64,000 nt of DNA from an uncultured Azospirillaceae bacterium (GTDB taxonomy: Bacteria > Pseudomonadota > Alphaproteobacteria > Rickettsiales > UBA3002), in NCBI GenBank assembly GCA_964352815.1, contig CAYGTO010000003.1:69015-133014 (forward strand), written 5' to 3'. Position numbers and translations under genes: made by a program. The notes below the pieces were generated by a model. It saw only the letters and a program-made list of their open reading frames with translations, had not been told where the DNA came from and ran no database searches. Within the stretch, counting starts at the first letter, position 1. Each line of letters opens with the position of its first letter. Of the stretch, positions 1,740 through 62,949 are shown in pieces.

Positions 1740-1941
1740 GGGCCCACAAGAAAATACAACCGAGAGTGTATAGATACTATCTTATATTCACGTGTTTGTC
1801 ATGTGTAATTCCCAACAGAATTGATAGGTTACTGAGGTTTAATATGGCTCTGTTTCCAATACGCAACAGGCTCATTTTCACCTAAGGGGTGTACTTTTCA
1901 GGGCGTTATCGTTATGATCCGCTCAACGATAACGGGTATCC

Positions 1942-3468
1942 ATGAGACAAATCTTACACCATTTCCACATCAGCCACCTTATTTTCATTTTGCTCATCGC
2001 CATCGGAATTCTGATTCCCGAGCAGACCGCCTCCGTGCTCGATGACATCACCTACACCTTTGGAACGCAGCTTAGCTGGATGATTCTGCTTATTTTCTCC
2101 TTCTTTATTGGCTTTGCCTTTGTGCTGGGCTTTGGCCGCTTTGGTCACGTCACGCTGGGCAGCCCCAAAGACGCGCCGGAATTCTCCTTCCTCTCATGGA
2201 TCGCCATGCTCTTCGCTGCCGGCATGGGCACTGGGCTTGTGTTCCACGGTGCGGCTGAGCCGCTTTACCACTTCACCAACCCCCCGCCCCGCGCCAATGC
2301 GGTGGTGGAAGAAGACATTGCCGCGCGCTACGCAATGGTGGTCACCTTCTTCCATTGGGGGATTCACGCCTGGGCCGTCTATGCCGTCGCCGCGGTGACC
2401 ATTGCTTATGCGACCTTCCGCAAGGGCCTGCCGATGCTCCCAAGCTCAGCACTCATGATGGATATGAGCAAGCGCTCACGCCGCATCATCGCGCTGACGG
2501 TGAATACGCTAGCCAGCATCGCGGTGGTGACGGGCCTGGTCTCTTCGCTTGGTTATGGCGTCGTGCAAATGAGCGCCGGCATTGCAGAACACTCCGCCCT
2601 ATCGCTTGGCAGTTTGAGTGACGCCGATATGCTACATTTAAAGCTCGGCGTGCTCTTCGTGCTGGTGGTGAGCTACATTGCCTCCTCTATCACAGGGATC
2701 GGCAAGGGCATCAAAATTCTCAGTAATGTGAATATGTTGGTTGCAATTACGCTCGCTCTCTTCGTGGTGTATTTTGGCCCAACTCTCTTCATCTTCCAAA
2801 GCTTTGTTAGCGGCATAGGAGACTATTTGGACCGCTTCATTAAGCTCGCCTTCAATGTCCGCCAATACAGCGATTCTGAGGGCTGGCAAAGTGACTGGAC
2901 CATCTCCTACCTGCTATGGTGGGTGGCCTGGGGGCCGTTTGTCGGCGTCTTCATCGCGCGTATCAGTAAGGGCCGCACGATTCGTGAATTCATGCTCGCC
3001 GTCATTTTTGTCCCAAGCATTTTCTCCTTCTTCTGGTTCGCCAGCCTCGGCGGGGCGGCGCTGCATATCGAGATTTTTGAGCAAAGCGGGCTGGCCGCCA
3101 TTGCGACCTCAGACCTCTCAAAAGTAACCTTCGCCCTGATGGAATATTTCCCCTATCCTGCGCTTTCGGGCGCCATTATCCTGGGGCTGATCTTTATCTT
3201 CCTAGTAACCAGCGCCGATAGCGGATCCTACGTGCTCGCCATGTTCTCATCCGATGGCCAGACCCGGCCTCCGCGGAACCACCGCTTGATATGGGGAAGC
3301 ATTATCGCACTTGTGACTGCGGCCGCTCTGATGATGGGACGCGAACTCCCCTTTATCCGCTCTTTTGCGGTCGCAGGATCGATTCCTTACCTGTTCATTA
3401 TGGTGGCGCAGTGTGTGGTGTTATGGCGAAGCTTGCAGGCAGATTTTCCGGAGAAGAAGCGGCTGTAA
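1942..3468 (+). CDS. BCCT-family (betaine/carnitine/choline) transporter
   Basis: 508 aa and polytopic. BCCT signature stretch WTISYLLWWVAWGPFVGVFIARISKGRTIREF, plus FHWGIHAWAVYA. Confidence 0.85.
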   Translation: MRQILHHFHISHLIFILLIAIGILIPEQTASVLDDITYTFGTQLSWMILLIFSFFIGFAFVLGFGRFGHVTLGSPKDAPEFSFLSWIAMLFAAGMGTGLVFHGAAEPLYHFTNPPPRANAVVEEDIAARYAMVVTFFHWGIHAWAVYAVAAVTIAYATFRKGLPMLPSSALMMDMSKRSRRIIALTVNTLASIAVVTGLVSSLGYGVVQMSAGIAEHSALSLGSLSDADMLHLKLGVLFVLVVSYIASSITGIGKGIKILSNVNMLVAITLALFVVYFGPTLFIFQSFVSGIGDYLDRFIKLAFNVRQYSDSEGWQSDWTISYLLWWVAWGPFVGVFIARISKGRTIREFMLAVIFVPSIFSFFWFASLGGAALHIEIFEQSGLAAIATSDLSKVTFALMEYFPYPALSGAIILGLIFIFLVTSADSGSYVLAMFSSDGQTRPPRNHRLIWGSIIALVTAAALMMGRELPFIRSFAVAGSIPYLFIMVAQCVVLWRSLQADFPEKKRL

Positions 3469-5466: not shown

Positions 5467-5483
5467 AGCAACCGGCATGCCAG
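5467..5483 (-). promoter_or_regulatory. sigma-54 (-24/-12) promoter for the 4530..5420 gene
   Basis: The minus strand reads CTGGCATGCCGGTTGCT, i.e. TGGCAT-N5-TTGCT with canonical GG/GC spacing (consensus TGGCAC-N5-TTGCW). It lies 46 nt (5421-5466) upstream of the ATG at 5420. An NtrC-type activator gene is divergent, ~235 nt away. Confidence 0.7.
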
Positions 5484-5717: not shown

Positions 5718-7214
5718 ATGATAGATCGCGTCGTAAACGTGCTGATTGCTGAGGATGACGCCACCCAGCGCACCCTTCTATCAAAGCTGCTCCAGAATCG
5801 CTTTGGTCACGAGACGGTGGAGGCCGAGAATGGCCGCCAGGCGATTGATATGATCATCGCCGATACCGACCATGCCATCGATATTGTCATTATGGATCTC
5901 GATATGCCGCTGATTGATGGCCGCGTCGCGCTGCGCCATATCCGAAAGATCCGTGAAAATCTGCCTGTCATCATTGTCACCTCGCATCGTGACGCAAATG
6001 ACGTCGAAGAATGCATGGAAGCCGGGGCGAATGACTTCCTAAACAAGCCAATTTCCCCGGAACGGATCCATGTGTCGGTCCAGAACGCGCTACGTCTCTC
6101 AGAGCTAGATCGTGAGCTCCAAGCGCTACGGACCGGTCAACCGCTTAGCGGCGCCTTTACGGAGATGATTGGCCACGACACCGGCCTGCGCACCACCGTG
6201 AAACTGGCACAGCGCGGCGCGGCGTCCGACATCACCATTCTTGTTACCGGCGAAAGCGGGGTAGGTAAAGAAGTACTCGCTCGTGCTATCCATGAAGAGA
6301 GCGCACGCTCAGGCAAACCCTTTGTCGCAGTCAATTGCGGCGCGATCCCGTCAGAGCTTGTCGAAAGCACGCTTTTTGGTCATAAGAAAGGCGCATTCAC
6401 CGGCGCGATTGCCGATAGCCCGGGTAAATTTCGCGAGGCAGATGGCGGCACGCTCTTTCTAGATGAAATCGGCGAATTGGCACCCGAAGCCCAGGTCCGC
6501 TTGCTCCGCGCCCTTCAACAGCGAGAAATCGAGCCCGTCGGCGAAGGCCAGTCCGTTCCGGTCAATGTCCGTATCATCGCCGCCACCCATCGTAATCTTG
6601 CACAAGAAGTCGAACGCAACCATTTTCGGGAAGATCTCTTTTATCGCCTCAACATCTTTCCCGTCCACCTCCCACCCCTGCGCGAGCGAAAACAGGACAT
6701 CCTGCCCCTCGCTCATTATTTCCTCGAGCGCTATAATCAGAGCGAAAACACCGAGATTGAAGGTTTCACCTTAGAAGCAGAAAATTGGTTAAAACAAAAC
6801 GTTTGGCAAGGGAATGTACGCGAGCTTGAAAATGCGCTCTACCGCGCCGTACTCTTAACCGAAGGGCGACGCATCGGCCTCTCCAGCCTTGCCCCAGCTA
6901 GTTCTTATGAGAGCTCCGCTTCCGCCTCGATCGGTCATGAGATCCCCGACGACATCCCCGATATGAGCGCCGCGCTGAGCCAGATTGCCGAAGCCATCGC
7001 CCCTTCTGCCGACAAACAGCCCGCAGCCAAGAGCGATCCGCTTACCATCGCCTTGCTGAGCGATGACGGTTCTTTTAAGCCGTATGAGCAGATTCGCGAT
7101 GAAATCTACCAGCTGGCACTGAACGCCCATCAGGGGCATATTATGGACGCCGCCAAAGCGCTCAATATCGGCAAATCCACGCTCTACCGGCATGTCGGTG
7201 GCAAAGAATCTTAG
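5718..7214 (+). CDS. sigma-54-dependent response regulator (NtrC family: REC + AAA+ + Fis-type HTH)
   Basis: REC with [13 protein letters not shown]. Walker A GESGVGKE, intact GAFTGA loop ([10 protein letters not shown]), Walker [10 protein letters not shown], and a C-terminal HTH ([11 protein letters not shown]). Strong SD AGGGGAGG. Confidence 0.9.
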
Positions 7215-7350
7215 AAAACAGCCATAAATCTTAAGAACTGTCATAAAACCGTCATATGGCTGTGCTTTACTGTATAATAAAGCACATTTAATAGTTGCGA
7301 ATAATTCTCATTATCATTATGAGAGAGCAGCAAAGAAGAAAGAAGCATCT

Positions 7351-9909
7351 ATGGCATCGGCCAACACAGCAATTAAAGGGGGCGCCACCCTGTTAGGGCG
7401 GATCGATGGCGGCGTCAAAACCGTTGCTGAGAAGCTTCACCTCGAGCCGGCTGCCTTCAAAAATATGCTGACAACCACAGGCCTGGCTGCGCTCTGGCCT
7501 CTCGGCAGTTATTACACCGATAAGCTAGTCGATAGTCAGATGCAGGACTACTCCCCCGAGGCGCAATATGCGACTAAAGTGGCCGGTAGCGTGCTGTTTG
7601 CAGCTCCGGTGCTGTTCCGTCCCTTTGGGGATTTTAATGAGAGCTTGGTCGGCAAAGCATCGGAATATTTCGCTGAAGGCAAGGCAGGCCGCGCCGACTT
7701 CTTGATGACCGCCCTGACCCTCGCCATTGGTGGCGCAGGCATGTTCCTGAAAGACACTGCGCGCAAGAAACCCAATGTCCCCACCCCGACTGATTCGCAA
7801 AAAGCGAAACATGTAGGCATCGAAAAACCGCTTGAAAACAAAATGCAAGATGAGGAGAAAAAAGACAGCGCGCATGATTTTGAAACTTCCGCCGCCATGC
7901 TCGCTGCCATCTTCGCCATCGCCAAAGGTATTGAGGAAAGCATCAGTGAAAAAGGCGAAGCCGTGCTCGATGGGCTAAAAGGCCTCTTGCCCGCGGAGGA
8001 AGATATGTTTGAAGTGATTCATAAAGACAATTCACGAACAATGCAGCCCTATGATAAAATTCGCGAAGGCGACCGGGTCATCGTTCCCGAAGGACGCTAT
8101 GTGCCGGTGGATGGTAGCGTTATAAAATATGGTGAAGCCGAGAAAGGCATGGCCGAATTTATTACCCATGAAGCCATCACAGGCGATGCGGCTGGCCGGA
8201 AAACCGCCATTAATATTGCTGAGACCGCTGGCCGCGGTGAATCCATCGCCTCGCAAGGACTCAAGACCGTCAAACAAACCATCATCAGGGCCGAAAAAAC
8301 CGTAGAGGAATCGACCATCTCGGAAATGCTCGAATCCTTCCGTGAATTCAAAAAAGGGCCTACTGGTGGCAGTATTTCACGCACCGTATCCAACGTCTAC
8401 ATCCCGCTCTTGCTTGGTTGCGTCGCGCTACAATTCGGCTATGGCTATTTCAAAGACCGCACCAAACATGTCGGCCGCATTGAAGAAAAACGCGATGCAC
8501 TGCGCGAGACGATTGCTGACCCCGAGAGCGATAATCAAACCATTGCCAACCAATCGGCGGAGCTATGGCAATATACCGATGATCATGGCCGCGACCATTC
8601 GATGCGCCAGAGCCTGAAGCGCTCGGCAGAACTCGCGATCAAAATGGCACCGTGCGCGATTATGGCCTCCTTGCTCGTGCTGCCTTTTACCAAATTCCGC
8701 CTCGCGGCTGAAGATATTAATATCAAGGTGAAATCCGACAAGGCGCTTGAAGAGCTCGGCCAGATCGACAGCATCATCGCGGACATTAATGGCACGCTCA
8801 CCACCGGCCAGGATAAAATTAAGGCGTTTGAATTCTTTGATGGCGCCGGGAAGGCAGTGACCGAAACAGCAAACGGTCTGATAGAACGACTCCAAACCTC
8901 GATCGCCAAAGCGGAAGCTGGCAGCGAGCATCGCATCGGCCGCATCATCTCAGAATGGCTCGAAGGCGCGCTTGGCAGACAAGTGCTGCGCGATGGGAGT
9001 GAGACTGCCCACGAAATCGCGACGAATGGCATGCGCTACGTAGAAGCGGGCGTCGAAACCTTCATCGGTAATATCGAATATATGAACGGCAAAGGCATCG
9101 ATCTCCCCGCCATCGCGAAAGACGCTAGCCAAGGCAATCATATCTATTCCGTGCTACGCGAAGGTGAAGAGTTGATCGGTTCGGCGCGCATTGAACTCAC
9201 CGATAGTCAGTTCCGCAAAGGGACAATTGAAGCGACCGTCCATCACCTGCTTCAAGATGGCATCAAAGGCTTTCAGCCATTAACTGGCACGGCCGAAGCA
9301 CCCGCCAAAGAGATCATGAAACGCTTTACCGATCAGGTAAAAACCTACATGAAAGAGAAACAGCATTCCCAAGCCGAAATCGATACGGTCCTTGGAAAAA
9401 TCAAAGACGTGACCAGCGTGCAGGGCAGCAAAGGAAAAGCCGAAGCGCTGGAAACCATCCTCTCAAAGCAGGGCTATACGAAGCCGTTTTATATTGGCGA
9501 TTCATGGAATGACACCGAAGCCTTGAAAGTGATCGCTGATAAGAACGGTATCACCGGTGTGATCGACGAGACGGGTGTCGCTACGACCAAAGCACAGGCT
9601 GATTTTATCCTAAACGGCTTGAGCGATGTGCAGCATCTTACCCATATCGGCAAGGACCTTAAAATGGCGACCACCGCTATGGTCGGGGCGGCAGGCCTGT
9701 GGATGACCGGCCTGGTAGGGCACCACGCGCTGGCAGAAGCCAATGTGCTCGACCCAGAAAAACAACCCAGCACCGTTTGGTCATCGGTATTGCACGAAGC
9801 ACCGACGGCCTTGCTTGCACTCGCTTCTGCGCTCGGTGCTTACGGTATTGGCAGGAAATACGCACCCAAAATCGCTGAAGTTGCCTCCGCTGCCGCACGC
9901 GGCGCGTAA
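7351..9909 (+). CDS. divergent P1B-type (heavy-metal-like) P-type ATPase homologue with altered catalytic motifs
   Basis: About 8 hydrophobic segments with the P1B motif order. REGDRVIVPEGRYVPVDGSV...ITGDA (TGES-like), MAPCAIMAS (CPC-like), ADINGTLTTG (DKTGTLT-like), GSEHR (SEHP-like), PLTGTAEAPA (TGDN-like), IGDSWNDTEAL (GDGxNDxP-like). Confidence 0.7.
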   Translation: MASANTAIKGGATLLGRIDGGVKTVAEKLHLEPAAFKNMLTTTGLAALWPLGSYYTDKLVDSQMQDYSPEAQYATKVAGSVLFAAPVLFRPFGDFNESLVGKASEYFAEGKAGRADFLMTALTLAIGGAGMFLKDTARKKPNVPTPTDSQKAKHVGIEKPLENKMQDEEKKDSAHDFETSAAMLAAIFAIAKGIEESISEKGEAVLDGLKGLLPAEEDMFEVIHKDNSRTMQPYDKIREGDRVIVPEGRYVPVDGSVIKYGEAEKGMAEFITHEAITGDAAGRKTAINIAETAGRGESIASQGLKTVKQTIIRAEKTVEESTISEMLESFREFKKGPTGGSISRTVSNVYIPLLLGCVALQFGYGYFKDRTKHVGRIEEKRDALRETIADPESDNQTIANQSAELWQYTDDHGRDHSMRQSLKRSAELAIKMAPCAIMASLLVLPFTKFRLAAEDINIKVKSDKALEELGQIDSIIADINGTLTTGQDKIKAFEFFDGAGKAVTETANGLIERLQTSIAKAEAGSEHRIGRIISEWLEGALGRQVLRDGSETAHEIATNGMRYVEAGVETFIGNIEYMNGKGIDLPAIAKDASQGNHIYSVLREGEELIGSARIELTDSQFRKGTIEATVHHLLQDGIKGFQPLTGTAEAPAKEIMKRFTDQVKTYMKEKQHSQAEIDTVLGKIKDVTSVQGSKGKAEALETILSKQGYTKPFYIGDSWNDTEALKVIADKNGITGVIDETGVATTKAQADFILNGLSDVQHLTHIGKDLKMATTAMVGAAGLWMTGLVGHHALAEANVLDPEKQPSTVWSSVLHEAPTALLALASALGAYGIGRKYAPKIAEVASAAARGA

Positions 9910-9967: not shown

Positions 9968-10061
9968 TGTCATTTCGAGCGAGCACGCAGTGCGACGAGA
10001 AACCTCAATCAAGCAGATGAGATCCTCACGTCACTCGCTTTCGCTCATTCCTCAGGATGAC
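9968..10061. repeat. short-form palindromic element, copy E
   Basis: TGTCATTTCGAGCGAGC...GATCC...CGCTTTCGCTCATTCCTCAGGATGAC. The right terminus is identical to copies at 13228-13238 and 48463-48473. The terminal ATGAC contains the first in-frame ATG of the DASS gene. Confidence 0.7.
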
Positions 10062-11568
10062 GAAAACACACAGTATGGCACAAGAAGAATTACAAAAAAT
10101 CATCTCCGCGGAAGCCGAATCCGGCCATCACCCGCTCAAAACTTTCGGGCTGATTGGCGGCGGGACTCTCTTCGCGCTCATGCTCATGATGGACGCGCCC
10201 GACGGCCTCAGCCAAGAGGGCTGGCAGGTACTCGCCGTCGCCATTTTGATGGCGCTGTGGTGGATGACTGAAGCGATTCCTGTAGCCGTCACCGGCCTCG
10301 TGCCCATCGTCGCAATTCCCCTGCTCGGCCTCGGCTCGATCGCGGAATCCGGCCAGGGCTTCACCACCAAAGCAGTGTTCCTGCCGCTCGGCGGCTTCAT
10401 CCTCGGCATCGCCCTGCAGCGCTGGAACCTGCATGAGCGCATCGCCCTGCAAACGGTCCGGCTGGTCGGCACCTCGCCGCGCCGCGTCATTGCCGGCTTC
10501 ATGATCGCCACCGCCTTTCTCTCCATGTGGATCACCAACACCGCCACCACCGTGATGATGCTCCCCATCGCCTATTCGGTCGCGCTGCTGCTCATCAATG
10601 AGGGCAAGGGCGAGCACAAAGACAAGCGCGCCTTTGGGGTGTGCCTGATGATCGGCATCGCCTACGCCGCCAGCATGGGCGGGATGATGACGCTGGTCGG
10701 CACCTCCACCAACGTCATGTTCAAGGGCTTCATGGAGGCGGAACTCGGTATTGAGATTGGCTTTGCGCAATGGATGATGCTGGCTGCACCGATCGCGCTG
10801 ACCATGATGGCGTTGATTTGGTTTGGGCTATGTTACGTCATTTTCCCCTGCCGCCTCGACCCGCATGATGGGGTGGATACGCTGATTGAAACCAAGCTCA
10901 AGGCGCTCGGAAAAATGGGCGCGGGTGAATGGCGTACCCTCCTGCTCTTCGCGAGCACGGCCTCTCTGTGGATTTTCCGCAAACCGATCGATGCGATGAT
11001 CGATGGGGTGACACTCAACGACGCCTCGATCGCCATCGCCGCCGCCATCGCGCTGTTCCTGATTCCCTCGGGTGAGAAGAATGCGCCAGGCGAAAAACTG
11101 CTGAAATGGAGCGACACGAAAGAAGTGCCATGGGGGATTTTGCTACTCCTCGCCGGCGGGATTACGCTGGCCGGCTTTATGAGCGATACGGGCGTTGCGA
11201 GCTGGATGGGCGGAAAACTCGGCGTGCTGCAGGGCGTCCCATTCTGGGTGCTACTGCTGATCATTACCGGCGCGATTATTCTGCTGTCTGAGCTAATGAG
11301 CAATGTCGCTACTTTGACCGCCTTTCTGCCCGTCATCATCGGCATTTCCGTCGCGTTCGATCAAGACCCGCTGCTACTCGCCGTGCCTGCTGCGCTGTCG
11401 GCCACCTGCGCCTTCATGCTGCCCATCGCCACCCCGCCAAACGCGATCGTGTTTGGCAGCGGCTTACTCAATATCAAAGACATGGTCCGCGCCGGGGTGA
11501 TTTATAATGTGATTGCGCTGGTCGTGATTAACTTGCTGTGTGCAGTGCTCGTACCGATGGTGTATTAG
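10057..11568 (+). CDS. DASS-family (SLC13-type) anion:sodium symporter
   Basis: 503 aa and polytopic. Two hairpin-tip motifs, WITNTATTVMMLPI and MSNVATLTAFLPV, plus ATPPNAIVFGSG. The start is ambiguous: ATG 10057 lies inside the repeat terminus; the alternative is ATG 10075. Confidence 0.85.
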   Translation: MTKTHSMAQEELQKIISAEAESGHHPLKTFGLIGGGTLFALMLMMDAPDGLSQEGWQVLAVAILMALWWMTEAIPVAVTGLVPIVAIPLLGLGSIAESGQGFTTKAVFLPLGGFILGIALQRWNLHERIALQTVRLVGTSPRRVIAGFMIATAFLSMWITNTATTVMMLPIAYSVALLLINEGKGEHKDKRAFGVCLMIGIAYAASMGGMMTLVGTSTNVMFKGFMEAELGIEIGFAQWMMLAAPIALTMMALIWFGLCYVIFPCRLDPHDGVDTLIETKLKALGKMGAGEWRTLLLFASTASLWIFRKPIDAMIDGVTLNDASIAIAAAIALFLIPSGEKNAPGEKLLKWSDTKEVPWGILLLLAGGITLAGFMSDTGVASWMGGKLGVLQGVPFWVLLLIITGAIILLSELMSNVATLTAFLPVIIGISVAFDQDPLLLAVPAALSATCAFMLPIATPPNAIVFGSGLLNIKDMVRAGVIYNVIALVVINLLCAVLVPMVY

Positions 11569-11633: not shown

Positions 11634-11769
11634 TGTCATCCCCGCGAAAGCGGGGATCCACAATCATATATGTCAGCAGACATATATGATTTCATAAAAT
11701 GCCTACTTGCATTTTGTGAATGGATTGCCTGCACGCGCTCACTGCTGTTCGCTTGGCGTGGCAATGACA
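11634..11769 (+). repeat. long-form composite palindromic element, copy B
   Basis: TGTCATCCCCGC-GAAA-GCGGGGATCCA. A 12-bp hairpin at 11663-11690 (ATCATATATGTC-agca-GACATATATGAT). A 12-bp hairpin with one G-T pair at 11691-11720. Right module TGGATTGCCTGCACG...GCGTGGCAATGACA at 11721-11769. Confidence 0.85.
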
Positions 11770-13150
11770 TGCTTTGTAGGCCCGCCTCATGCACTTTCGT
11801 ACTCGGCGCAGCATTCATATTCGCCGGCGCTTGCTCGGCCGCCTTCATCATCCGATGCGCCGTAAGCTCCGCATACAGCTCGGCATAGGACGCTTCACCA
11901 AATTCAGGAATCTCGCGCATCGCATCAATAATCTCCGGCACATGTTCCTCGCGATGCCCTTGCGGCAACACATCCAGCGCCGCATCGATATGCGCGAAGA
12001 GTTCGCCGCGATCGATCTTTTTCTCTGAGAAAGGCGCCGCCGCTTTGCAGAGCAGGCCAAGCATAATGATCGCCGTACCGCCTACTTTGAATTTATTGGC
12101 GTTGATAAGTTTCTCATCACTCGCCGCGGTCGCTTCGTACAAATCTTTAAGACCACTATTCATGATAAACCCAGTAGCTGCGAATTCGGAAAGCCCCGAC
12201 ACCGGCATCGCCTGCCTGCGCACTGGGTCGATATATTTTTTCGCCACCTCTTTTCCAAACACATCGCGGATGGCATATTCCACCCAATCAAGCACCGCTG
12301 CCTGATCTGCCTCAGGCTGTTCATCTAATTGACGCTGGGGTTCGGTTTCTTTTCCTTTCCCTGCAAGCGTCACGATTTTTGCAAATTGCGATAATTTGCC
12401 CGCCCGTTGCAGCCAGACATCGCTTGAAGATTTAGACAAAATCATCTTACCGAAAAACTTAAGTAAATCGCTGGCAACGGTAGAATTTTTCTTCAATGAA
12501 TGATCAATCTGATCCAATGTTGATGATCCAATATTTTCTTCGACCTGCCTCTCTTGCGCGCTTATTGCATGGGTCCCTAGCGCCTCATTGATGCGCTGTT
12601 TGGTGAGATACAGCCCCGCTTCATCGCCACGCTTTTGAACACCGTAACCAAGATTGATCATATTTGCGGCAATGCTGGTTCCCGCTGAATACACCTCGAC
12701 ATAAGGGTCTTTTACTTTTACCAAGCTAAATAAATCGGCCTTTGCGGGTTTGTCAAAATTTAGGCCGCGCTTTAGGCCGGAATAAAATACCATCGCCTGA
12801 CCGATATTGCCCAGCACCCCCCGCACGCGCATCAGGTCAACACTTTCCGTCCAGCTTTTCTCCTTCACCACTTCGCGGTAGGCGTCCTTGCCGGCCATTT
12901 GGGTGAGGGAACGCGCGACGGCTTCGGCGGGCTGGGGCGAGCGCAAGACGAGCGTATGGGTGCCATCCTCATGATGGTGTTCGCCGAGGGTGTGATAAGT
13001 CGCGGCGCCTTGCTTAAGCTGATGATGCAAATCCTCCAGCGATTCGCAAGCGCGCGTCGTCAAGGCCAGCACACTGCCCTTGCCCAACATGGTGACATCG
13101 GCGCGTTGCACCAGATCACCCTTATGTTTCGCGTCGAATCGCTTAATCAT
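11636..13150 (-). CDS. hypothetical protein (orphan); last ~44 codons and stop lie inside repeat copy B
   Basis: 504-aa open frame with a GAGGA SD 7 nt upstream of ATG 13150. No recognisable domain. The C-terminal ...MSLPRQANSSERVQAIHSQ...GSPLSRG is the reverse-frame read of the repeat. Confidence 0.55.
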   Translation of the reverse strand: MIKRFDAKHKGDLVQRADVTMLGKGSVLALTTRACESLEDLHHQLKQGAATYHTLGEHHHEDGTHTLVLRSPQPAEAVARSLTQMAGKDAYREVVKEKSWTESVDLMRVRGVLGNIGQAMVFYSGLKRGLNFDKPAKADLFSLVKVKDPYVEVYSAGTSIAANMINLGYGVQKRGDEAGLYLTKQRINEALGTHAISAQERQVEENIGSSTLDQIDHSLKKNSTVASDLLKFFGKMILSKSSSDVWLQRAGKLSQFAKIVTLAGKGKETEPQRQLDEQPEADQAAVLDWVEYAIRDVFGKEVAKKYIDPVRRQAMPVSGLSEFAATGFIMNSGLKDLYEATAASDEKLINANKFKVGGTAIIMLGLLCKAAAPFSEKKIDRGELFAHIDAALDVLPQGHREEHVPEIIDAMREIPEFGEASYAELYAELTAHRMMKAAEQAPANMNAAPSTKVHEAGLQSMSLPRQANSSERVQAIHSQNASRHFMKSYMSADIYDCGSPLSRG

Positions 13151-21933: not shown

Positions 21934-22029
21934 TCGAATTTACAACAAAAGAGGTGCGCAAAGGCCCCTAACCTCTTGTCTCATTTGTGGTTATGTTATA
22001 AGCCGTTGAATAACATTATCATAGAAAGA

Positions 22030-23907
22030 ATGACGAACTATCGCCACCTATTTTTTTCCACCATCCTCGCCTCTAGCGTTAGCGCTTTTGGGTTTGCGGG
22101 CTATGTGGCCGCGCAAGACGCGGAGCAGCCGCCTGCTTCGCTCGGGATTGATGCCCCCTATCAGGGCAAGCAGGACGCGGTGTCGTTTATTCCGCCGCTC
22201 GATGCCATTGCGATTGAAGAGACTAGCGCGCTTACGTATGAGTCTGAAGGCTTAGAAACACCGCAAAGCCAGGGGTTTTCTAACGATATTTGGCGCGAGA
22301 GTAGCCAAGAATCCTTAGTTAACCTGCTACAAAAGCTACCGCAAGGCATTGATAACGCATCGATGCGCCAGCTATTAACCTTGCTGCTTTCATTCCGCAC
22401 GCAAGGGCCGGAAAAAGAGAGTGATGACGAGAATTGGCTGACGCTGCGTGCACGCACATTGGCCCATATAGGGGAAATCGATAAGGCCCTCACACTCCTC
22501 ACGCTTCTGCCTAAGGAACAGCGCAGTGCCGAGCATCGTATCATGCAGATGGGCTATGCGCTGCAAACGGGTAATTCTAAAAAAGCATGCGATCAGGTGC
22601 GCGCGACACCTGACATCGCTGCGTCGGTGGGAGGCAGTGCTGCATTTTTGCCAAGCGTGTGCCATGCGATTGATGGAAACCAAGCCAAAGCGTCGCTGCA
22701 AACAAGTTTGCTTAGCGAGTCCAACCTTCTGGCGCCATGGATGGAACGCTGGCTGAAGGCCTATCATATTACCAGTCCGAAAGCGGCGAACAACGCCGCC
22801 GCGTTTTATTTCTCTGACGATAACGATGATGCGCTGAGCGAATCAAGCGATGCATATGACGCGATTCAGTATGGATTGCTGCGTTACCTGCTGCCTGGCG
22901 TATGGCCGAAAGAATACCGTTCACTCGTCGGCATTGAAGAATTGCCGCTAGCTCTGCAGCGCGCCGTGCTAGAAGACCCGAAACTGTCCGACCTGCTTGA
23001 TAAAAAAGACGCGCTGCGTCTTGCAGAATCTCTCTTCACAGTCGGTGCTTTGCCGAAAGAGCTGCTGTTTGAACGATACGCCACCTACCATGGCGGCGGC
23101 TTCACCCAGCATGCTGATCTCTCCTCAACCACCGCATTCCGCGGGGCAGATGGCCATGCGGCGCTCTATGGTCAGCTCATCGCCACGACGCAGCTTACCA
23201 AACAATCCGCTATCTTGCGCAAATTCTTCGAAGTCGCACATAAAGAAACGCGCATTCCGTTGATGCAATCTTTGTTCGGTGATGTGATCGAGCAAATGTC
23301 TGAGAAAATAAAGCCTGACACGCCCTATCTTGAGATTGCACCGATCGCGTTGATTCATGCGCTGTCGAACACAGACCCGGTGCAGGCAACGCGCTGGGCG
23401 AATCATTTGGAGCAGCATCGTTCCTCGCATGCATTGCTTCCGCTAGGGAAAGCGATGATCGGCTTCCTCAAGGCACGTATTTCGGGTGATGCCGAGACGA
23501 GCCGTTACGAAGCAATCACGCTAACTCTGCCAGCGCCCAACATTATTGCGGATCGCGATGAGCGTCAGTTGATGGCACAGCTTTATACGCTGCTCAGCGC
23601 GTCTGGCCTTGCGGTCGACGATGCGCTGATGGCAGGTGAAACGGTCGCATCCGATGCCGGCACCATGCTGCATCCACTTATGCTGCCCTTGCGCCGCGCC
23701 ATCGAAGAACAACGCAAAGGCCCGGTGATCCTCTATATGATAAGCATTCTACAAGAGACACCTCTCGCATCCATGCACCCGAAAATGGCTGCAGATCTCG
23801 TGAATGCGATGCATGCCATTGGGTATGATAGCTGGGCAGATAGTATGCTGATGCAAGCGTTGGCGGCGGATTTAATGGCGCTGTATGCGGCACCCTCTGA
23901 TGGGTAA
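22030..23907 (+). CDS. hypothetical secreted protein
   Basis: The track ORF starts at a TTG (21976). ATG 22030 gives MTNYRHLFFSTILASSVSAFGFAGYVAAQD, a plausible Sec signal. No catalytic motif seen. Confidence 0.55.
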   Translation: MTNYRHLFFSTILASSVSAFGFAGYVAAQDAEQPPASLGIDAPYQGKQDAVSFIPPLDAIAIEETSALTYESEGLETPQSQGFSNDIWRESSQESLVNLLQKLPQGIDNASMRQLLTLLLSFRTQGPEKESDDENWLTLRARTLAHIGEIDKALTLLTLLPKEQRSAEHRIMQMGYALQTGNSKKACDQVRATPDIAASVGGSAAFLPSVCHAIDGNQAKASLQTSLLSESNLLAPWMERWLKAYHITSPKAANNAAAFYFSDDNDDALSESSDAYDAIQYGLLRYLLPGVWPKEYRSLVGIEELPLALQRAVLEDPKLSDLLDKKDALRLAESLFTVGALPKELLFERYATYHGGGFTQHADLSSTTAFRGADGHAALYGQLIATTQLTKQSAILRKFFEVAHKETRIPLMQSLFGDVIEQMSEKIKPDTPYLEIAPIALIHALSNTDPVQATRWANHLEQHRSSHALLPLGKAMIGFLKARISGDAETSRYEAITLTLPAPNIIADRDERQLMAQLYTLLSASGLAVDDALMAGETVASDAGTMLHPLMLPLRRAIEEQRKGPVILYMISILQETPLASMHPKMAADLVNAMHAIGYDSWADSMLMQALAADLMALYAAPSDG

Positions 23908-23912
23908 GCCTG

Positions 23913-24830
23913 ATGGCAGCGCTCCCTTACCGCGACCTGTTCGTTGATATGTTGCTTGCTGAGCGCGGCGCTTCGAAACATACCGTCGAAGCGTATGATC
24001 GGGATTTGCGCGATTTTATGGAATCACTCCCTAAGGATGTTAAAGTCGAGTCACTTAGCAACCACGCGATTGACCGCTTCATGACAGAACTTGGCAGCCG
24101 CGGACTCGCCGCCTCGACCTTGTCGCGCAAGCTTTCTGCGATTCGACATTATTTCAAATTTCTCTACTCTGAAGGCATTCGCCACGATAACCCCGCGCTT
24201 CACACGGCACGGCCGAAAAGAGCAAAGCCACTGCCGCATTGTTTGAGTGCGGATGAGGTGCAGCATTTGCTGGATACTGCGCAGCATGATGAGAGCGCTG
24301 AAGGTATCCGCCTGTATACCATGTTAGAAGTGCTCTATGCCTCTGGCATGCGGGTGAGTGAGCTGGTCACTTTACCAATCAAGACATTGCGTTCGCTGGA
24401 TAGCAAAAATATTATGATGCTTTCTGTTACCGGAAAGGGGAAGAAAGAACGGCTCGTACCACTGCATTCTACTGCGTGCGAAGCGCTGCAGCATTATCTG
24501 CCCATGCGTGCAGCATTTTTTCCTAAAGGAGAAGAAGATAGCCTCTATCTTTTCCCATCATACGGCAGCAAAGGGCATGTCACGCGTCAACGATTTGGCC
24601 AACTCATCAAGGCGCTTGCAATAAAGGCCGGGATGGACCCAACCACATTGTCCCCCCATGTGATTCGCCATTCCTTCGCAACGCATTTGCTTCAGAACGG
24701 TGCAGATTTACGGGTGATACAGGAGCTTCTCGGACATAGTGACATTAGCACAACCCAGATTTACACGCATGTGATGCAGGAAGATTTAAAGAAGCTCGTC
24801 GAAGCTTATCACCCACTCGCGCAAGAGTAA
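23913..24830 (+). CDS. xerD: site-specific tyrosine recombinase XerD-type
   Basis: N-terminal SAM-like ...LAERGASKHTVEAYDRDLRDF. The catalytic box RHSFATHLLQNGADLRVIQELLGHSDISTTQIYTHV contains the R...HxxR...Y residues. Confidence 0.8.
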   Translation: MAALPYRDLFVDMLLAERGASKHTVEAYDRDLRDFMESLPKDVKVESLSNHAIDRFMTELGSRGLAASTLSRKLSAIRHYFKFLYSEGIRHDNPALHTARPKRAKPLPHCLSADEVQHLLDTAQHDESAEGIRLYTMLEVLYASGMRVSELVTLPIKTLRSLDSKNIMMLSVTGKGKKERLVPLHSTACEALQHYLPMRAAFFPKGEEDSLYLFPSYGSKGHVTRQRFGQLIKALAIKAGMDPTTLSPHVIRHSFATHLLQNGADLRVIQELLGHSDISTTQIYTHVMQEDLKKLVEAYHPLAQE

Positions 24831-31616: not shown

Positions 31617-34226
31617 TTAATAATTATCCAAGAAGCTGCGCATTTTTCGGCTGCGGCTTGGGTGCTTCAGCTTGCGCAGGGCTTTGGCTTCAATCTGACG
31701 AATCCGCTCACGGGTCACGCTAAACTGCTGCCCCACTTCCTCGAGCGTATGGTCGGTGTTCATGCCAATGCCAAAGCGCATCCGCAGCACCCGCTCTTCG
31801 CGCGGTGTCAGCGTCGCCAGCACGCGGGTGGTGACTTCGCGCAGATTATTATGCACCGCGGAATCGAGCGGCAGAATCGCATTTTTATCTTCGATGAAAT
31901 CGCCAAGATGCGAATCTTCCTCATCACCCACCGGGGTTTCGAGCGAGACCGGCTCTTTCGCGATTTTCATCACCTTGCGCACTTTGTCGACAGGCATCAC
32001 CAAACGTTTCGCCAATTCTTCTGGCGTTGGCTCACGGCCAATTTCATGCAACATCTGACGACCGGTGCGGACAATTTTATTGATTGTTTCGATCATATGG
32101 ACCGGAATCCGGATCGTACGCGCTTGGTCCGCAATCGAACGGGTGATTGCCTGACGAATCCACCAGGTTGCATAGGTTGAGAATTTATAGCCGCGGCGAT
32201 ATTCGAACTTATCGACCGCCTTCATCAGGCCAATATTTCCTTCCTGAATCAGATCCAGGAATTGCAGCCCGCGATTGGTGTATTTCTTCGCGATCGAAAT
32301 CACGAGGCGCAGGTTTGCCTCAATCATCTCCTTCTTCGCACGTGATGCCTCGCGTTCACCCTTACTCACCGCGCCAACGACACGCTTGAATTCTTGCACA
32401 TCAAGGCCCTGTTGCTTCGCGACCGCTTCAATCTTCTCACGAATCTCAATGATTTCATCTTTGTGATTGGCAACAAACTCTTTCCAGCCCTTCTCCTTCA
32501 GCTTAGAAACATCTTTGATCCAGTCCGGTGCGACTTCATTGGTTGCGTAATGCTCAAGGAAATTTTTGCGACTGACTTTGGATTTTTCGGCAAGGCGGAG
32601 GAGCCGCGTCTCAAGTGCGATGAGCTTTTTATTTTCACCGTAGAGACGATCCATCAGCTCGTCGACACGCAGCGCGCTCAAACGCACCGTCAGCATGAGC
32701 TCAGTAAGATCCTTATGGAGAGCATCATACTTCTTTTGATCTACTGTGGCGAAACTACCTTCGCCAAATCCAGCACCCAGACGCTTATCCTGCAAGCGCT
32801 TCATCTTTTTCGCGATTTTAGCAAAATCGTCTAACGTTTCAAGGAACTGAGGCATGAGCGCATTTTCCATCGCCACCAGTGACATTGCCGTGTCATCATA
32901 ATCATCCTCGTCCTCTTCCTCTTCCTCGCCTTCGCCCTCTTCATCTTCCTTATCTTCATCCTCATCGGTTTCATCATCCGAATCTTTTTTGGATTTTTTC
33001 TTGGGCTTATCTTCTTCCTTTGTCTCTTTTTCTTTGGCCTCTTTTTCTTTTGTCTCCTCTTCCTCTAGCGTATCAAATGCCTCTTCAAGCTCGTCTTCTG
33101 TAGGCTCATCTTCATCTTCCGAGAAATCATTCTCAGCATTATAGGTGCCTTCCAGATCGATGATATCACGCAGTAAAATCTCACCCGTCGATAGCCCATC
33201 ACGCCAGGCCAGCATGGTGTCCATCACCACGGGACTTTCGCACAAAGACCGAATAATCATCTCGCGACCTTCTTCAATGCGCTTCGCAATCGCAATCTCA
33301 CCTTCGCGTGAGAGCAGCTCGACATTGCCCATCTCGCGCAAATACATGCGAACAGGGTCATCGGAGCGACCGTAATAATCATCACTCTTTGCTTCCGATT
33401 CCTCTTCTTCCGCTTCTTCGCCCTCAATCGTTACTTCTTTTTCTTCACTATCACCTTCCACAAGATCCGTCACCTTGATGCCATTTTTTTCAAGCGCATC
33501 AATCGTATTATCAATCACTTCGGGGGAGAATTCTTCCGCAGGAAGTACCGCATTCAAATCATCATACGTCACGAAGCCTTGCTTCTTACCCAGCGTCGCA
33601 AGTTTTTTCATGACATCAGGAGAGACACTATTCTTCAGATTTTCTGCCGGAACGGCTTTCTTCGCCGTCTTTTTCGTTTTGCTTTCTTTCGCAGTCGCCT
33701 TCTTCGGCGTTTCTGCTTTCGCTGGCTTTTTGGCTGCTGACTTTGGAGCTGCCTTCGTGGCTTTCGCTTTTACAGGCGCTTTAGATGCTGCCTTTTTCGA
33801 GGTCGATTTCGTTGATTTAACAGTTGCAGTCACAGACTTCTTAGCCTTTACAGGAGTGGTTTTTTTCGATGCGGTGGAAGCTGTCGTCTTCTTCGCGGTT
33901 GTTTTTGTTGTAGTAGTATTACGCGTGGCCGCCTTTTTAGGTGACGCTTTGGCCGCGACTTTTTTCGCAGGCGCTTTCTTAGCAGCGGCCTTTTTGGTTG
34001 GCGTCTTCTTCGCGGGAGATTTCTTCACCGCTGTTTTAGTAGTAACTTTTTTTACCGGTGTTTTTTTCGTAGCAGGCTTCTTGGCTGCTGGCTTTTTCAC
34101 TGTGACTTTCTTTGCTGGCGCTTTCTTAGCAGCAGACTTCTTCACCGCTGCTTTTTTGGCCGGCGCTTTTTTCGCTGCTGTTTTTTTTGCTGTTGATGCT
34201 TTTGCGGTTTTCTTCTTCGCTACCAT
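31617..34226 (-). CDS. rpoD: RNA polymerase primary sigma factor with Lys/Ala/Pro-rich N-terminal extension
   Basis: Regions 1.2-4.2 are canonical ([11 protein letters not shown], ...[55 protein letters not shown], ...[27 protein letters not shown]). aa 1-195 are AKKxP-type repeats in the same frame. Confidence 0.9.
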
Positions 34227-54903: not shown

Positions 54904-54909
54904 TAAGAG

Positions 54910-55066
54910 AAGTACTGCGCGGTGCGTGAGGATCGAACGCTCCGGGACCGATGTAACCTTTAAGGGAGCTGTCCCTTGCTTCGGCTGTGGCCTTAGTAAT
55001 ATGGCACCCACCTGACCACACGGGTCACGGGAGGTTTTATGCATCCCACGGCCAGCGCGGTACTTT
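54910..55066 (+). ncRNA. ssrS: 6S RNA (putative)
   Basis: It lies between zapA and the 5-formyl-THF cyclo-ligase gene, the conserved ssrS slot. An 11-bp closing stem pairs AAGUACUGCGC (54910-54920) with GCGCGGUACUU (55055-55065), with one G-U pair. Length is ~157 nt. An internal arm CUCCGGGACC pairs imperfectly with GGGUCACGGGAG. Confidence 0.6.
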
Positions 55067-55080
55067 ACCTAAGGTCCACT

Positions 55081-55692
55081 ATGCATTCGCCACTTTCCTA
55101 TCACCCTGACCAGCTTCCCTATGAAAAACAACGGCTTAGGCAGAAACTACTGACCCAGCGCCAACAATACCCAGCCGATAAGCGCCTGTTCGCGGCCGAG
55201 TCGATCGCGCAGCATTTCATGGACCACCCGCTTCTCGCCTTTGATGCGCCTGTGGCGGGCTATATTGCCATGCGCGGCGAACTCGATATTACGCTTATTT
55301 TTGATAAGCTTAGGAAATACCAAAAAATGACATGCCTCCCCGTTGTTGACGAAAAAGATGCGCCTCTCCTCTTCCGTGAGTGGCATAAAGGCCAGCCGCT
55401 CACCCAAGGCACCTTGGGGGTGAAGGAGCCTGCAGCGGAGGCGGAAACATGCAACCCGCGTATTATTCTCGTTCCTTTGCTCGCCTTTGATCCGGCCGGC
55501 TACCGGCTTGGCTATGGCGGCGGTTATTATGACCGGACCATCGCAGCGCTGCGCAGCGCCGATCCATCCAATCCCCCGCTCACTATCGGAGTTGCCTATG
55601 ATTTTCAAGAAGTTGACGCCTTGCCAATCGAGCCACACGACATTCGCCTGGATGGGATTCTGACCGAAACCGGCGTGAGTATGTTTTTGTAG
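55081..55692 (+). CDS. 5-formyltetrahydrofolate cyclo-ligase
   Basis: KQRLRQKLLTQR..., GTLGVKEP, VPLLAFDPAGYRLGYGGGYYDR. ATG 55081 is preferred over 55039 because the longer frame would run through the 3' arm of the putative 6S RNA. Confidence 0.8.
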   Translation: MHSPLSYHPDQLPYEKQRLRQKLLTQRQQYPADKRLFAAESIAQHFMDHPLLAFDAPVAGYIAMRGELDITLIFDKLRKYQKMTCLPVVDEKDAPLLFREWHKGQPLTQGTLGVKEPAAEAETCNPRIILVPLLAFDPAGYRLGYGGGYYDRTIAALRSADPSNPPLTIGVAYDFQEVDALPIEPHDIRLDGILTETGVSMFL

Positions 55693-60056: not shown

Positions 60057-60072
60057 TGCAAAGCGCGTGCCA
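60057..60072 (-). promoter_or_regulatory. sigma-54 promoter for fliK
   Basis: The minus strand reads TGGCACGCGCTTTGCA, an exact match to TGGCAC-N5-TTGCA. It lies 37 nt upstream of the fliK ATG. Confidence 0.8.
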
Positions 60073-62933: not shown

Positions 62934-62949
62934 TGCTAAAATCGTGCCA
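62934..62949 (-). promoter_or_regulatory. sigma-54 promoter for the flgI operon
   Basis: The minus strand reads TGGCACGATTTTAGCA (TGGCAC-N5-TAGCA, correct GG/GC spacing). It lies 29 nt upstream of ATG 62905. Confidence 0.7.

Follow-up and report, generated by a model that had tools for sequence, protein, structure and literature searches.

An uninterrupted frame of 852 codons spans positions 7351 to 9909 (+) of the window (the whole 64-kb stretch of DNA analysed) and opens at the first start codon past a stop. The window as a whole encodes an ordinary flagellated, metabolically complete bacterium; a 1181-aa class II RNR, a dnaG-rpoD pair and a tkt-gap-pgk cluster suggest that it is a proteobacterium, possibly an alphaproteobacterium. 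The frame, its upstream region and the motifs of its product are as follows.

7236 to 7248 (+): conserved upstream element AACTGTCATAAAA, exact and unique in the window
7261 to 7286 (+): palindrome with a 9-bp stem, TGTGCTTTA-N8-TAAAGCACA, holding a candidate extended -10, TGTATAAT, at 7271-7278
7294-7312 (GTTGCGAATAATTCTCATT) and 7300-7318 (AATAATTCTCATTATCATT) (no strand): a pair of Fur-type boxes that overlap with a 6-nt offset, from consensus matching
7306 to 7324 (no strand): AT-rich palindrome TCTCATTAT-C-ATTATGAGA, which extends the array of Fur-type hexamers
7351 to 9909 (+): P1B-type (P1B-4-like) ATPase homologue of a lysine-less lineage (ORF, Pfam/NCBIfam, homologue alignment, structure model)
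7750 to 7875 (+), aa 134-175: charged insert in the M1-M2 loop (alignment, composition, low pLDDT)
8179 to 8190 (+), aa 277-280: A-domain TGDA, canonical TGES; Gly invariant in the clade, acid Glu in 18/19 and Asp here
8452 to 8625 (+), aa 368-425: charged, predicted-helical insert between M3 and M4 (alignment, composition, AlphaFold model)
8629 to 8658 (+), aa 427-436: M4 ion-site helix ELAIKMAPCA, the same in 19/19 clade members; APC, aa 433-435, at 8647-8655
8782 to 8802 (+), aa 478-484: phosphorylation loop DINGTLT, canonical DKTGTLT; D478 invariant
8923 to 8934 (+), aa 525-528: N-domain SEHR, canonical SEHP; His kept in 18/19 clade members
9283 to 9294 (+), aa 645-648: P-domain TGTA, canonical TGDN; Thr/Ser and Gly kept, Asp gone (Met in most of the clade)
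9436 to 9438 (+): K696, the HAD motif-III lysine, invariant in the alignment
9496 to 9519 (+), aa 716-723: GDSWNDTE, canonical GDGxNDxP; D717, N720 and D721 invariant
9793 to 9807 (+): M6 motif HEAPT, P1B-4 HEGxT; H815, E816, P818 and T819 invariant

The A-, P- and N-domains of the 852-aa protein are inserted in a helical membrane domain, as in the P-type ATPase superfamily (HAD-IC), and the Pfam cut-offs for E1-E2_ATPase (PF00122; 43.9 bits versus 28.1) and Hydrolase (PF00702; 29.7 versus 26.4) are both passed. Among NCBIfam models, the P1B model TIGR01525 was the top match with 100.8 bits, a score below its cut-off of 346.25; TIGR01512 (64 versus 313.5) and TIGR01511 (44.7 versus 397) also fell below theirs. 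An earlier sequence-only reading had proposed a P1B architecture of ~8 hydrophobic segments with actuator, P and N domains in order, and this is what the AlphaFold model (pLDDT 71.6) displays, with eight long helices. Together with the APC in M4 and His527 in SEHR, these helices place the protein in P1B. Foldseek searches with the model retrieved the full-length P1B structures ATP7B, LpCopA, ZntA and sCoaT at E values of 1e-19 to 1e-23 (best 4e-23). The proper reference is P1B-4 rather than CopA/ZntA. The P1B-4 pump sCoaT (7qbz) was the top match of a PDB sequence search, and a profile search of the PDB ranked LpCopA (155.7 bits) above sCoaT (133 bits). P1B-4 pumps have eight helices (PMC3922081, PMC8880997), an SPC motif in M4, of which APC is a known variant in some chlorophyte and bacterial pumps (PMC3922081), and HEGxT in M6, and they lack a classical N-terminal metal-binding domain (PMC8880997). 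The translation contains no CxxC motif and the Pfam search returned no PF00403 domain, as had been claimed. The APC variant and the missing N-terminal domain are thus already known in P1B-4 and normal for it, so that neither is an anomaly, and the change from CPC to APC had wrongly been read as one.

In every textbook P-type ATPase, the three motifs DKTGT, TGES and TGD are what defines the Post-Albers cycle. All six motif changes listed earlier were found at the residues and nucleotides given for them, but the accompanying statement that most catalytic motifs are altered goes too far. The HAD core is conserved: the nucleophile Asp (D478), which had correctly been described as retained and is invariant across the clade, the Thr of motif II (T645), the Lys of motif III (K696) and, in GDGxND, the two Asp ligands of Mg2+ with the Asn (D717/N720/D721). 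The HP His of the N-domain and the A-domain Gly-acid pair are also kept. What has truly gone is the TGD Asp and, from DKTGT, the Lys and the Thr next to it. The signature common to all P-type ATPases (PMC10654040) reads D-I-N-G-T here, with the Asp, the Gly and the second Thr retained: a hydrophobic residue stands for Lys at D478+1, and Asn for Thr at D478+2 (Arg in most of the clade). TGDA represents a conservative Glu-to-Asp change at the TGES position, and APC plus HEAPT preserve His, Glu and Thr of the P1B-4 motif pair, with Gly replaced by Ala. Three P-type-specific residues around the aspartyl-phosphate have been remodelled (Lys to hydrophobic, Thr to Asn/Arg, and TGD Asp to Thr/Met), whereas the P1B-4-type ion site x-P-C (M4) plus H-E-x-x-T (M6), the nucleotide-binding His, the HAD core and the A-domain Gly-acid have been kept.

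These substitutions recur in a core clade of ~13 clusters among 1.84 billion representative proteins, in which APC (M4) and HE.PT (M6) are invariant, D-[IVLF]-[RN]-G-T replaces DKTGT, and most members have TGM instead of TGD. The 19 relatives aligned are 25-37% identical to the 852-aa protein (22-81% pairwise), and all have ELAIKMAPCA, D-[IVLF]-[RN]-G, TG[MTS] and HE.PT. The core clade sits inside a wider lysine-less lineage of ~40 clusters that was monophyletic in 182/200 neighbor-joining (NJ) bootstraps; HE was found in M6 of 39/39 lysine-less relatives and [AS]PC in M4 of 36/39, the exceptions being MAC, LPC and SDC. Functional positions are heavily overrepresented among invariant columns (15/20 versus 55/852 overall; hypergeometric p = 2e-15), and each of the remaining five of the 20 is shared by 17 or 18 of the 19 sequences. 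The catalytic residues of the clade are, as this alignment indicates, under purifying selection. The 852-aa protein and P0002, which lacks the HP His, are the most derived and fastest-evolving members, on long branches. The NJ tree placed the lineage beside SPC/HEGST proteins, and its union with canonical P1B-4 appeared in 60/200 bootstraps; HMMs built from P1B-4, P1B-2 and P1B-1 representatives failed to discriminate, with the 852-aa protein scoring highest against the Cu-type model. On the strength of the M4/M6 signature, we propose that the lineage branched from P1B-4-type pumps. Two loci came from a genome scan and one from a metagenome scan; the family is rare. We found no paper on the lysine-less clade in the literature searched.

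The two Fur-type boxes end 39 nt (GTTGCGAATAATTCTCATT) and 33 nt (AATAATTCTCATTATCATT) ahead of the ATG. The stretch 7294-7312 matches 15/18 positions of the Fur consensus AATGAGAATNATTCTCATT (PMC1790865), and it is the sole site with at most 3 mismatches in the 64-kb window, where 0.05 would be expected. A perfect box lies at the same 39-nt spacing before the gene of P0002 (locus L004), boxes with 1-3 mismatches precede those of P0005, P0003, P0008 and P0015, and the DAO-ATPase operons of L010 and L001 are preceded by weaker matches, with 4 and 5 mismatches. Control by Fur and/or PerR is described for known P1B-4 iron exporters (PMC7762939). We infer from the sequence that the ATPase gene is under Fur (or Mur) control, the direction of control and the metal being put forward on the same ground. 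Further upstream, AACTGTCATAAAA has a counterpart at the same relative position before the genes of P0002, P0038 and P0040. The extended -10 reported within the palindrome was confirmed insofar as both sequences are present, but a two-hexamer promoter scan did not pick the site. The palindrome 7261-7286 was rejected as a strong terminator (-12 kcal/mol; z = -1.49, which is unexceptional), and a T-run terminator was not found. No riboswitch or other known RNA was matched by Rfam in 7150-7420, up to an E value of 5.

The gene lies directly downstream of a sigma-54 activator (5718-7214), as noted before; the regulatory link is not supported, because the interval 7215-7350 holds nothing that matches TGGCAC-N5-TTGC. 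A perfect sigma-54 match was located at 60057-60072 (-), upstream of a FliK-like gene, and two sites with one mismatch were found as well, one at 5467-5482 (-) and the other in front of flgI at 62934-62949 (-). Because good promoter matches sit at flagellar genes, the activator is probably flagellar and its adjacency to the ATPase gene probably incidental. Two candidate protein partners were discarded. An MSOX/NikD-like FAD oxidoreductase adjoins the ATPase gene in the loci of six relatives, but no homologue of it exists anywhere in the window. The downstream DASS transporter is syntenic only with the P0003 locus (65% identity), which probably reflects genome relatedness.

The charged insert that had been placed at aa 368-425, before the APC helix, was confirmed. 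This M3-M4 insert varies in length among relatives and, by analogy with P1B topology in the available structures (PMC8880997), would be on the extracytoplasmic side. In the alignment, the charged M1-M2 insert is common only to the 852-aa protein and P0002. M4 itself carries two charged residues, E427 and K431, just before APC, both invariant in the clade. The membrane helices are far less hydrophobic than those of working P1B pumps; averaged over the 8 best 19-aa windows, hydrophobicity comes to 1.2-1.35 in the lineage versus 1.85-1.9 in the pumps.

Collectively, we read these features as those of a Fur-controlled, P1B-4-derived iron/transition-metal ATPase with remodelled phosphorylation chemistry that is predicted to cycle, and we give this reading a probability of about 0.5. 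The protein would be an inner-membrane ATPase with Fe(II) or a similar divalent metal as its most probable cargo. It would retain Mg-ATP binding and a phosphoenzyme cycle of altered, probably slow, kinetics, and this cycle would gate the passage of metal through the M4/M6 site. The two charged outer-face loops and the unusually polar membrane helices may modify the exit or entry side. Transcription would be governed by a Fur-family metalloregulator acting on a box located within or just after the promoter, and the gene would therefore respond to the status of iron, or possibly of manganese; we do not expect it to be regulated by the adjacent sigma-54 activator. More tentatively, and as a proposal that we consider doubtful as it stands, the lineage could work without the Lys of DKTGT and the Asp of TGD, be switched on through Fur at low iron, and have its role in acquiring or redistributing metal, not in efflux for detoxification. 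Such a protein might have evolved a new way to stabilize or turn over the aspartyl-phosphate, in which Arg or Asn at D+2 makes up for the lost residues, or it might be a pump turned into an ATP- or metal-gated conduit.

The sequence-only reading had offered an unusual pump and a pseudo-ATPase as alternatives; both stay live, and the test set with them, a conserved clade against random decay, came out in favor of that reading. In the second alternative, which is possible but which we do not favor, the protein does not cycle; it binds Mg-nucleotide and a membrane metal and acts within the Fur regulon as a channel gated by metal or nucleotide, as a sensor or as a scaffold. Mutagenesis of SERCA speaks against a cycling protein: substitution of any one of the three residues concerned (Lys and Thr of the phosphorylation loop, Asp of TGD) is reported to abolish phosphoenzyme formation. 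In the lysine-less lineage, the DKTGT Lys is missing from all ~40 clusters, and the TGD Asp from 30/30 proteins whose D+2 residue is not Thr. In many intermediate members of the wider lineage the TGES Glu has become Gln or Asp, as would be expected had the cycle been abandoned. The long branches and the weak hydrophobicity of the membrane helices point the same way, as does a CPC-type branch (P0104 and P0128) that reached D-h-N-G-T and TG[TS] independently and has no A-domain Glu. Set against this loss, sequences with pairwise identities of 22-81% show no change at the nucleophile Asp, the Lys of motif III, the A-domain Gly or either of the Asp ligands of Mg2+, and 19/19 of them retain the A-domain acid (Glu in 18). 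To our knowledge, this acid has no role besides aspartyl-phosphate hydrolysis. Moreover, the D+1 position is variable across the wider HAD superfamily, which argues that the DKTGT Lys is outside the minimal phosphotransfer chemistry.

The low hydrophobicity bears on another, very improbable explanation, by which the protein is exported to a different membrane (e.g., a host or vacuolar one, the bacterium being protist-associated) and its weak helices escape insertion into the inner membrane. Hydrophobicity is lowered in all membrane helices across the lineage, a described trait of transmembrane effectors (PMC6110835). Relatives occur in Rickettsiales and other alphaproteobacterial MAGs, and the ATPase evolves fast beside its neighbor (30% identity versus 65% for the adjacent DASS transporter). 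However, the surroundings of the gene showed no secretion system, signal or chaperone, the gene content of the window is that of an ordinary bacterium, eight helices in 852 aa would make an extreme secretion substrate, and control through a Fur box suits a housekeeping metal function. That a P1B pump is undergoing pseudogenization in the source lineage would fit the heavy substitution of the 852-aa protein and P0002 on their long branches, but it is largely refuted by the intact frame, the identical protein on an independent assembly, the strong enrichment of catalytic positions among invariant columns, the conserved upstream box and the outcome of the comparison set beforehand, conserved clade versus random decay, in which the orthologues keep the same kind of substitutions clade-wide.

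The lineage, conserved, under purifying selection and probably under metal regulation, is a natural experiment on which residues are indispensable, in that three of them (Lys, Thr and the TGD Asp) have been swapped while nucleophile, Mg2+ ligands and dephosphorylation residue stay in place. Proteins that cycle would embody another solution for the active site, and proteins that do not would be the first recognizable pseudo-P-type ATPase family to have kept a metal site. The candidate Fur-type box ahead of the gene, with its counterparts before relatives' genes, is new and points to a concrete condition, iron or manganese limitation. For annotators, the motif set [AS]PC plus HE..T plus D-h-x-G-T sets the lineage apart from ordinary "cation transport ATPases".

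Among known systems, the P1B-4 pumps compared were sCoaT, Bacillus subtilis PfeT, Listeria monocytogenes FrvA, Mycobacterium tuberculosis CtpD/CtpJ, Sinorhizobium meliloti Nia and plant HMA1. The protein resembles them in x-P-C in M4, His-Glu-x-x-Thr in M6, eight predicted helices, absence of a CxxC domain and an HP-type nucleotide site, and it resembles the iron exporters among them in Fur-family control, here from a candidate box in the sequence. It departs from them by DKTGT to DINGT, TGD to TGT, TGES to TGD and HEGxT to HEAPT, by E427/K431 before APC, by its long charged M1-M2 and M3-M4 inserts and by much less hydrophobic helices. With P1B-1/P1B-2 pumps (CopA, ATP7B and ZntA), its top Foldseek matches, it shares the overall fold and domain order; these pumps differ in having CPC in M4, other M5/M6 ligands without HE..T and CxxC domains at the N terminus, and their DKTGT, TGES and TGD motifs are fully canonical. 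The CPC-type lysine-less branch of P0104 and P0128 shows the derived state of the 852-aa protein, with D-[LV]-N-G-T-L-T and TG[TS]. These two proteins differ by CPC in M4, an M6 without HE..T and an A-domain motif without an acidic residue, and since they are placed elsewhere in the NJ tree, their loss of the lysine is of independent origin.

Translation of the ORF at 7351-9909 (+) yielded an uninterrupted frame of 852 codons, in which the six altered motifs proposed by the sequence-only reading were recovered at the same residues and nucleotides:

aa 277-280 (+), TGDA, at the TGES position
aa 433-435 (+), APC, at the CPC position
aa 478-484 (+), DINGTLT, at the DKTGTLT position
aa 525-528 (+), SEHR, at the SEHP position
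aa 645-648 (+), TGTA, at the TGDN position
aa 716-723 (+), GDSWNDTE, at the GDGxNDxP position

Pfam matches to E1-E2_ATPase (43.9 bits) and Hydrolase (29.7 bits) each exceeded their cut-offs, the top NCBIfam match was the P1B model TIGR01525 (100.8 bits, below its cut-off of 346), and the top PDB sequence match was 7qbz, the P1B-4 pump sCoaT. An AlphaFold model built with 19 relatives as input (pLDDT 71.6, pTM 0.58) predicted eight long helices with the A, P, and N domains in canonical order and matched the full-length structures of ATP7B, LpCopA, ZntA, and sCoaT (E 1e-19 to 4e-23), which bears out the P1B architecture of about eight hydrophobic segments assigned previously. The charged stretch before the APC helix (aa 368-425) likewise proved to be a genuine insertion, located between M3 and M4, with a helix predicted with good confidence and a length that differs among relatives. 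A second charged insertion, between M1 and M2 (aa 134-175), is common only to the window protein and its closest relative.

P1B-4 pumps are characterized by SPC in M4 (some green algae and three bacteria are described as having APC instead), by HEGxT in M6, and by eight helices without a classical N-terminal metal-binding domain (PMC3922081, PMC8880997). APC and the absence of a CxxC domain, both correctly noted before, are thus the norm of the probable parent group rather than anomalies. By sequence, the unusual features of the protein cluster around the aspartyl-phosphate. DKTGT has exchanged both its Lys and its Thr for other residues, and TGD its Asp; the window protein itself also has Asp for the TGES Glu and GDSWNDTE for GDGxNDxP. 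Position D+1, directly after the phosphorylated Asp, is variable across the wider HAD superfamily, so its lysine is specific to P-type ATPases and not part of the minimal chemistry. P-type ATPases are described as all sharing DKTGT as their signature (PMC10654040), and a conserved lineage without its lysine would surprise a specialist in these enzymes.

A word-indexed search of 5.8 billion proteins returned just 18 relatives, at 25-37% identity, beyond which scores dropped to an E of about 1e-5, corresponding to ordinary P1B pumps. Across the core-clade alignment, whose 19 sequences share 22-81% identity in pairs, ELAIKMAPCA in M4 and HE.PT in M6 are both invariant. The phosphorylation loop reads D-[IVLF]-[RN]-G-[TV]-L-T, with DKTGT present in 0/19; the hinge is TG[M/T/S]; and the D, N, and D of GDGxND are all retained. 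Fifteen of the 20 known catalytic or ligand positions are invariant (17 or 18 of the 19 sequences keep each of the remaining 5) versus 55 of 852 columns overall (hypergeometric p = 2e-15 for enrichment at functional positions), a signature of purifying selection on three parts of the protein: its phosphotransfer core, its nucleotide site, and its metal site in the membrane. The orthologues therefore form a conserved clade with similar substitutions, and the random decay considered earlier is excluded.

Searching 1.84 billion representative proteins with a core-clade profile returned three score bands: about 13 core-clade clusters (>540 bits), roughly 20 intermediate clusters (190-380 bits), and canonical P1B pumps, the first of which was an SPC/DKTGT/HEGST protein, i.e., P1B-4. 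Motif extraction identified HE..[T/A/V/S] in M6 of every protein in the top two bands, hereafter the lysine-less lineage, and the DKTGT Lys in none of them, the loop reading D-[LMIVFR]-[TRNVI]-[GK]-[TPV]. [AS]PC occurs in M4 of 36 of the 39 lysine-less proteins; P0046, P0056, and P0057 carry MAC, LPC, and SDC, respectively. Thr at D+2 is common among intermediate members, in which case the acidic TGD residue is usually retained (7/11); with any other D+2 residue it is retained in 0/30, counts that are not phylogenetically independent. The TGES Glu is Gln or Asp in many of the intermediate members, and several have His-rich N-termini. The family is rare and environmental, occurring in Rickettsiales and other alphaproteobacterial MAGs and in metagenome or sequencing-run assemblies (JGI, ENA, Logan). 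No curated model names the lysine-less clade, since NCBIfam matches fall under cut-offs and Pfam matches are generic; 'cation transport ATPase' is the sole source annotation of its proteins, and no description of it turned up in the literature searched.

An NJ tree built from 538 columns of 116 taxa (200 bootstraps) recovered the 39 lysine-less [AS]PC proteins as monophyletic in 182/200 replicates, the pairing of the window protein with its relative P0002 in 200/200, and a window subclade with P0038, P0003, and P0004 in 190/200. Union of the lysine-less proteins with canonical SPC/HEGST proteins received 60/200, and subgroup HMMs did not discriminate a subgroup for the window protein, so a P1B-4 origin would lean mainly on the M4/M6 signature. 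Outside the window, P0104 and P0128 form a separate CPC-type P1B branch, also without the DKTGT Lys (loops DLNGTLT and DVNGTLT), with TGT/TGS replacing TGD and no acidic residue at the TGES position. This branch converged independently on the state of the window protein (D-h-N-G-T plus TG[TS]).

The gene lies directly downstream of a sigma-54 activator gene (5718-7214), as the sequence-only reading stated. No sigma-54 promoter was found between the activator gene and the ATG of the ORF, whereas good matches lie elsewhere:

60057-60072 (-), perfect TGGCACGCGCTTTGCA, sigma-54 consensus match, upstream of a FliK-like gene
62934-62949 (-), one-mismatch sigma-54 site, upstream of flgI
5467-5482 (-), one-mismatch sigma-54 site, upstream of a 296-aa receiver-like ORF

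On these grounds the activator is probably a flagellar regulator and its adjacency probably incidental. The palindrome reported at 7261-7286, with TGTATAAT, exists, but its hairpin is not unusually stable.

Scoring against the Fur-box consensus (AATGAgAATcATTctCATT / aaTGAtAATnATTaTCAtt; PMC1790865) revealed a Fur-type box downstream of TGTATAAT, GTTGCGAATAATTCTCATT (7294-7312), with an overlapping copy offset by 6 nt (7300-7318). It is the sole site with ≤3 mismatches across the 64-kb window (expected, 0.05), and the start codon begins 39 nt past its end. Such boxes also precede the relatives' genes:

L004 (P0002), perfect Fur-type AATGAGAATAATTCTCATT, ending 39 nt before the ATG
L005 (P0005), one-mismatch box, 106 nt upstream of the ATG
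L008/L009 (P0003), three-mismatch box, 65 nt upstream of the ATG
L011 (P0008), two-mismatch box, 137 nt upstream of the ATG
L006/L007 (P0015), two-mismatch box, 245 nt upstream of the ATG
L010, four-mismatch box, ahead of the DAO-ATPase operon (FAD oxidoreductase and ATPase-like genes)
L001, five-mismatch box (13/18 by hand), ahead of the DAO-ATPase operon

Across the 191 kb of sequence fetched, nearly every match with ≤3 mismatches belongs to this set of upstream sites. Since the window box lies past TGTATAAT and across an alternative -10, TATCAT (7312-7317), repression by a metal-loaded regulator is the likely mode. The P1B-4 iron exporters PfeT, FrvA, CtpD, PmtA, and Nia are controlled by Fur and/or PerR (PMC7762939). 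In alphaproteobacteria, boxes of the Fur type can be sites for Fur or for Mur, a manganese regulator (PMC1698941), so the box does not fix the metal.

Near-perfect classical Fur boxes (ATTGATAATGATTATCAAT; L011 4846-4864 and L006 5738-5756) sit in the intergenic region from which the ATPase-like gene and a small ORF on the minus strand diverge. Nearer the ATG than these boxes lies another conserved motif, TTG[CT]AA[TC]T[GA]AGA[AG]TC..TTGCAAT, which is also present in L012. The element AACTGTCATAAAA (7236-7248; single occurrence in the window), about 100-115 nt 5' of the start codon, also occurs upstream in L004, L013, and L014 and is thus conserved ahead of four ATPase-like genes encoding proteins of ≤37% identity; its spacing is unsuited to a sigma-70 -35 element.

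In six loci of the DIRGT/TGM subclade, the ATPase-like gene adjoins a gene for an uncharacterised FAD oxidoreductase (Pfam DAO domain), weakly similar to sarcosine/N-methyl-Trp oxidase and NikD:

L001 6401-7936, FAD oxidoreductase
L002 2379-3722 (-), FAD oxidoreductase
L006 8562-9908 (-), FAD oxidoreductase
L010 1918-3408, FAD oxidoreductase
L011 7574-8923 (-), FAD oxidoreductase
P0009 contig 1786-3300, FAD oxidoreductase

The copies are 44-70% identical to one another and lie directly upstream of the ATPase-like gene, on the same strand, in three loci; the window holds no homologue. Within the window, a 504-aa ORF (11636-13150, -) without Pfam or NCBIfam match follows a DASS transporter gene (10057-11568, +). 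The syntenic stretch of L009 (3345-6197) has a 461-aa ORF in its place, at only 21% identity versus 65% for the transporter; the product is a fast-evolving protein. A 643-aa ORF (21976-23907, +; TTG start) without Pfam match precedes a XerC/D-type integrase gene (23913-24830). The RpoD homologue (31617-34226, -; 869 aa) has an unusually long N-terminal extension of about 200 residues before region 1.1, with dnaG (34424-36283) just downstream of its gene. A 6S RNA (Rfam RF00013, 61.6 bits; 54909-55067, +) lies directly upstream of the 5-formyltetrahydrofolate cyclo-ligase gene (55039-55692), the usual ssrS-ygfA arrangement.

With a probability of roughly 0.5, we read the window protein as a P1B-4-derived metal ATPase that would still use Mg-ATP and form a phosphoenzyme, with altered kinetics, under the control of a Fur-family regulator. 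The analysis directly supports its homology and fold, the conserved core, the signature of the metal site, and the conservation of the Fur-type box, whereas turnover, substrate, transport direction, and how it is regulated are inferred. The main rival, less likely but deserving weight, is a pseudo-ATPase that still binds nucleotide and metal but does not cycle; in its favor are the universal loss of Lys in the lysine-less lineage, the frequent loss of the TGES Glu in its wider membership, and the parallel state of P0104/P0128, reached without an A-domain acid. Against it, the Asp nucleophile is invariant and the A-domain acid retained in 19/19 core-clade members, and to our knowledge the only role of this acid is hydrolysis of the aspartyl-phosphate. 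Pseudogenisation is a minor alternative, contradicted by the conserved clade alignment and its enrichment of invariant catalytic positions and by the identical protein encoded on an independent assembly.

The metal ATPase that we favor would have a modified membrane domain. Glu427 and Lys431 are invariant in M4, immediately preceding APC, and with M4 oriented as in P1B pumps both lie outward of the ion site; His792 is invariant at the end of M5 in the core-clade alignment. Together with the two outer-face inserts and low hydrophobicity, these residues suggest that the exit or entry half of the membrane domain has been remodelled and made more polar. The low helix hydrophobicity is also the sole hint of an exported membrane protein (concept, PMC6110835), a minor possibility. 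Over its eight best 19-residue windows, the window protein averaged 1.35 on the Kyte-Doolittle scale; the corresponding means were 1.31 in the core clade and 1.19 in the intermediates, versus 1.85 and 1.89 in working P1B-4 and CPC pumps, respectively. The helices of the lysine-less lineage (about 1.2-1.35) are thus much less hydrophobic than those of canonical P1B pumps (1.85-1.9).
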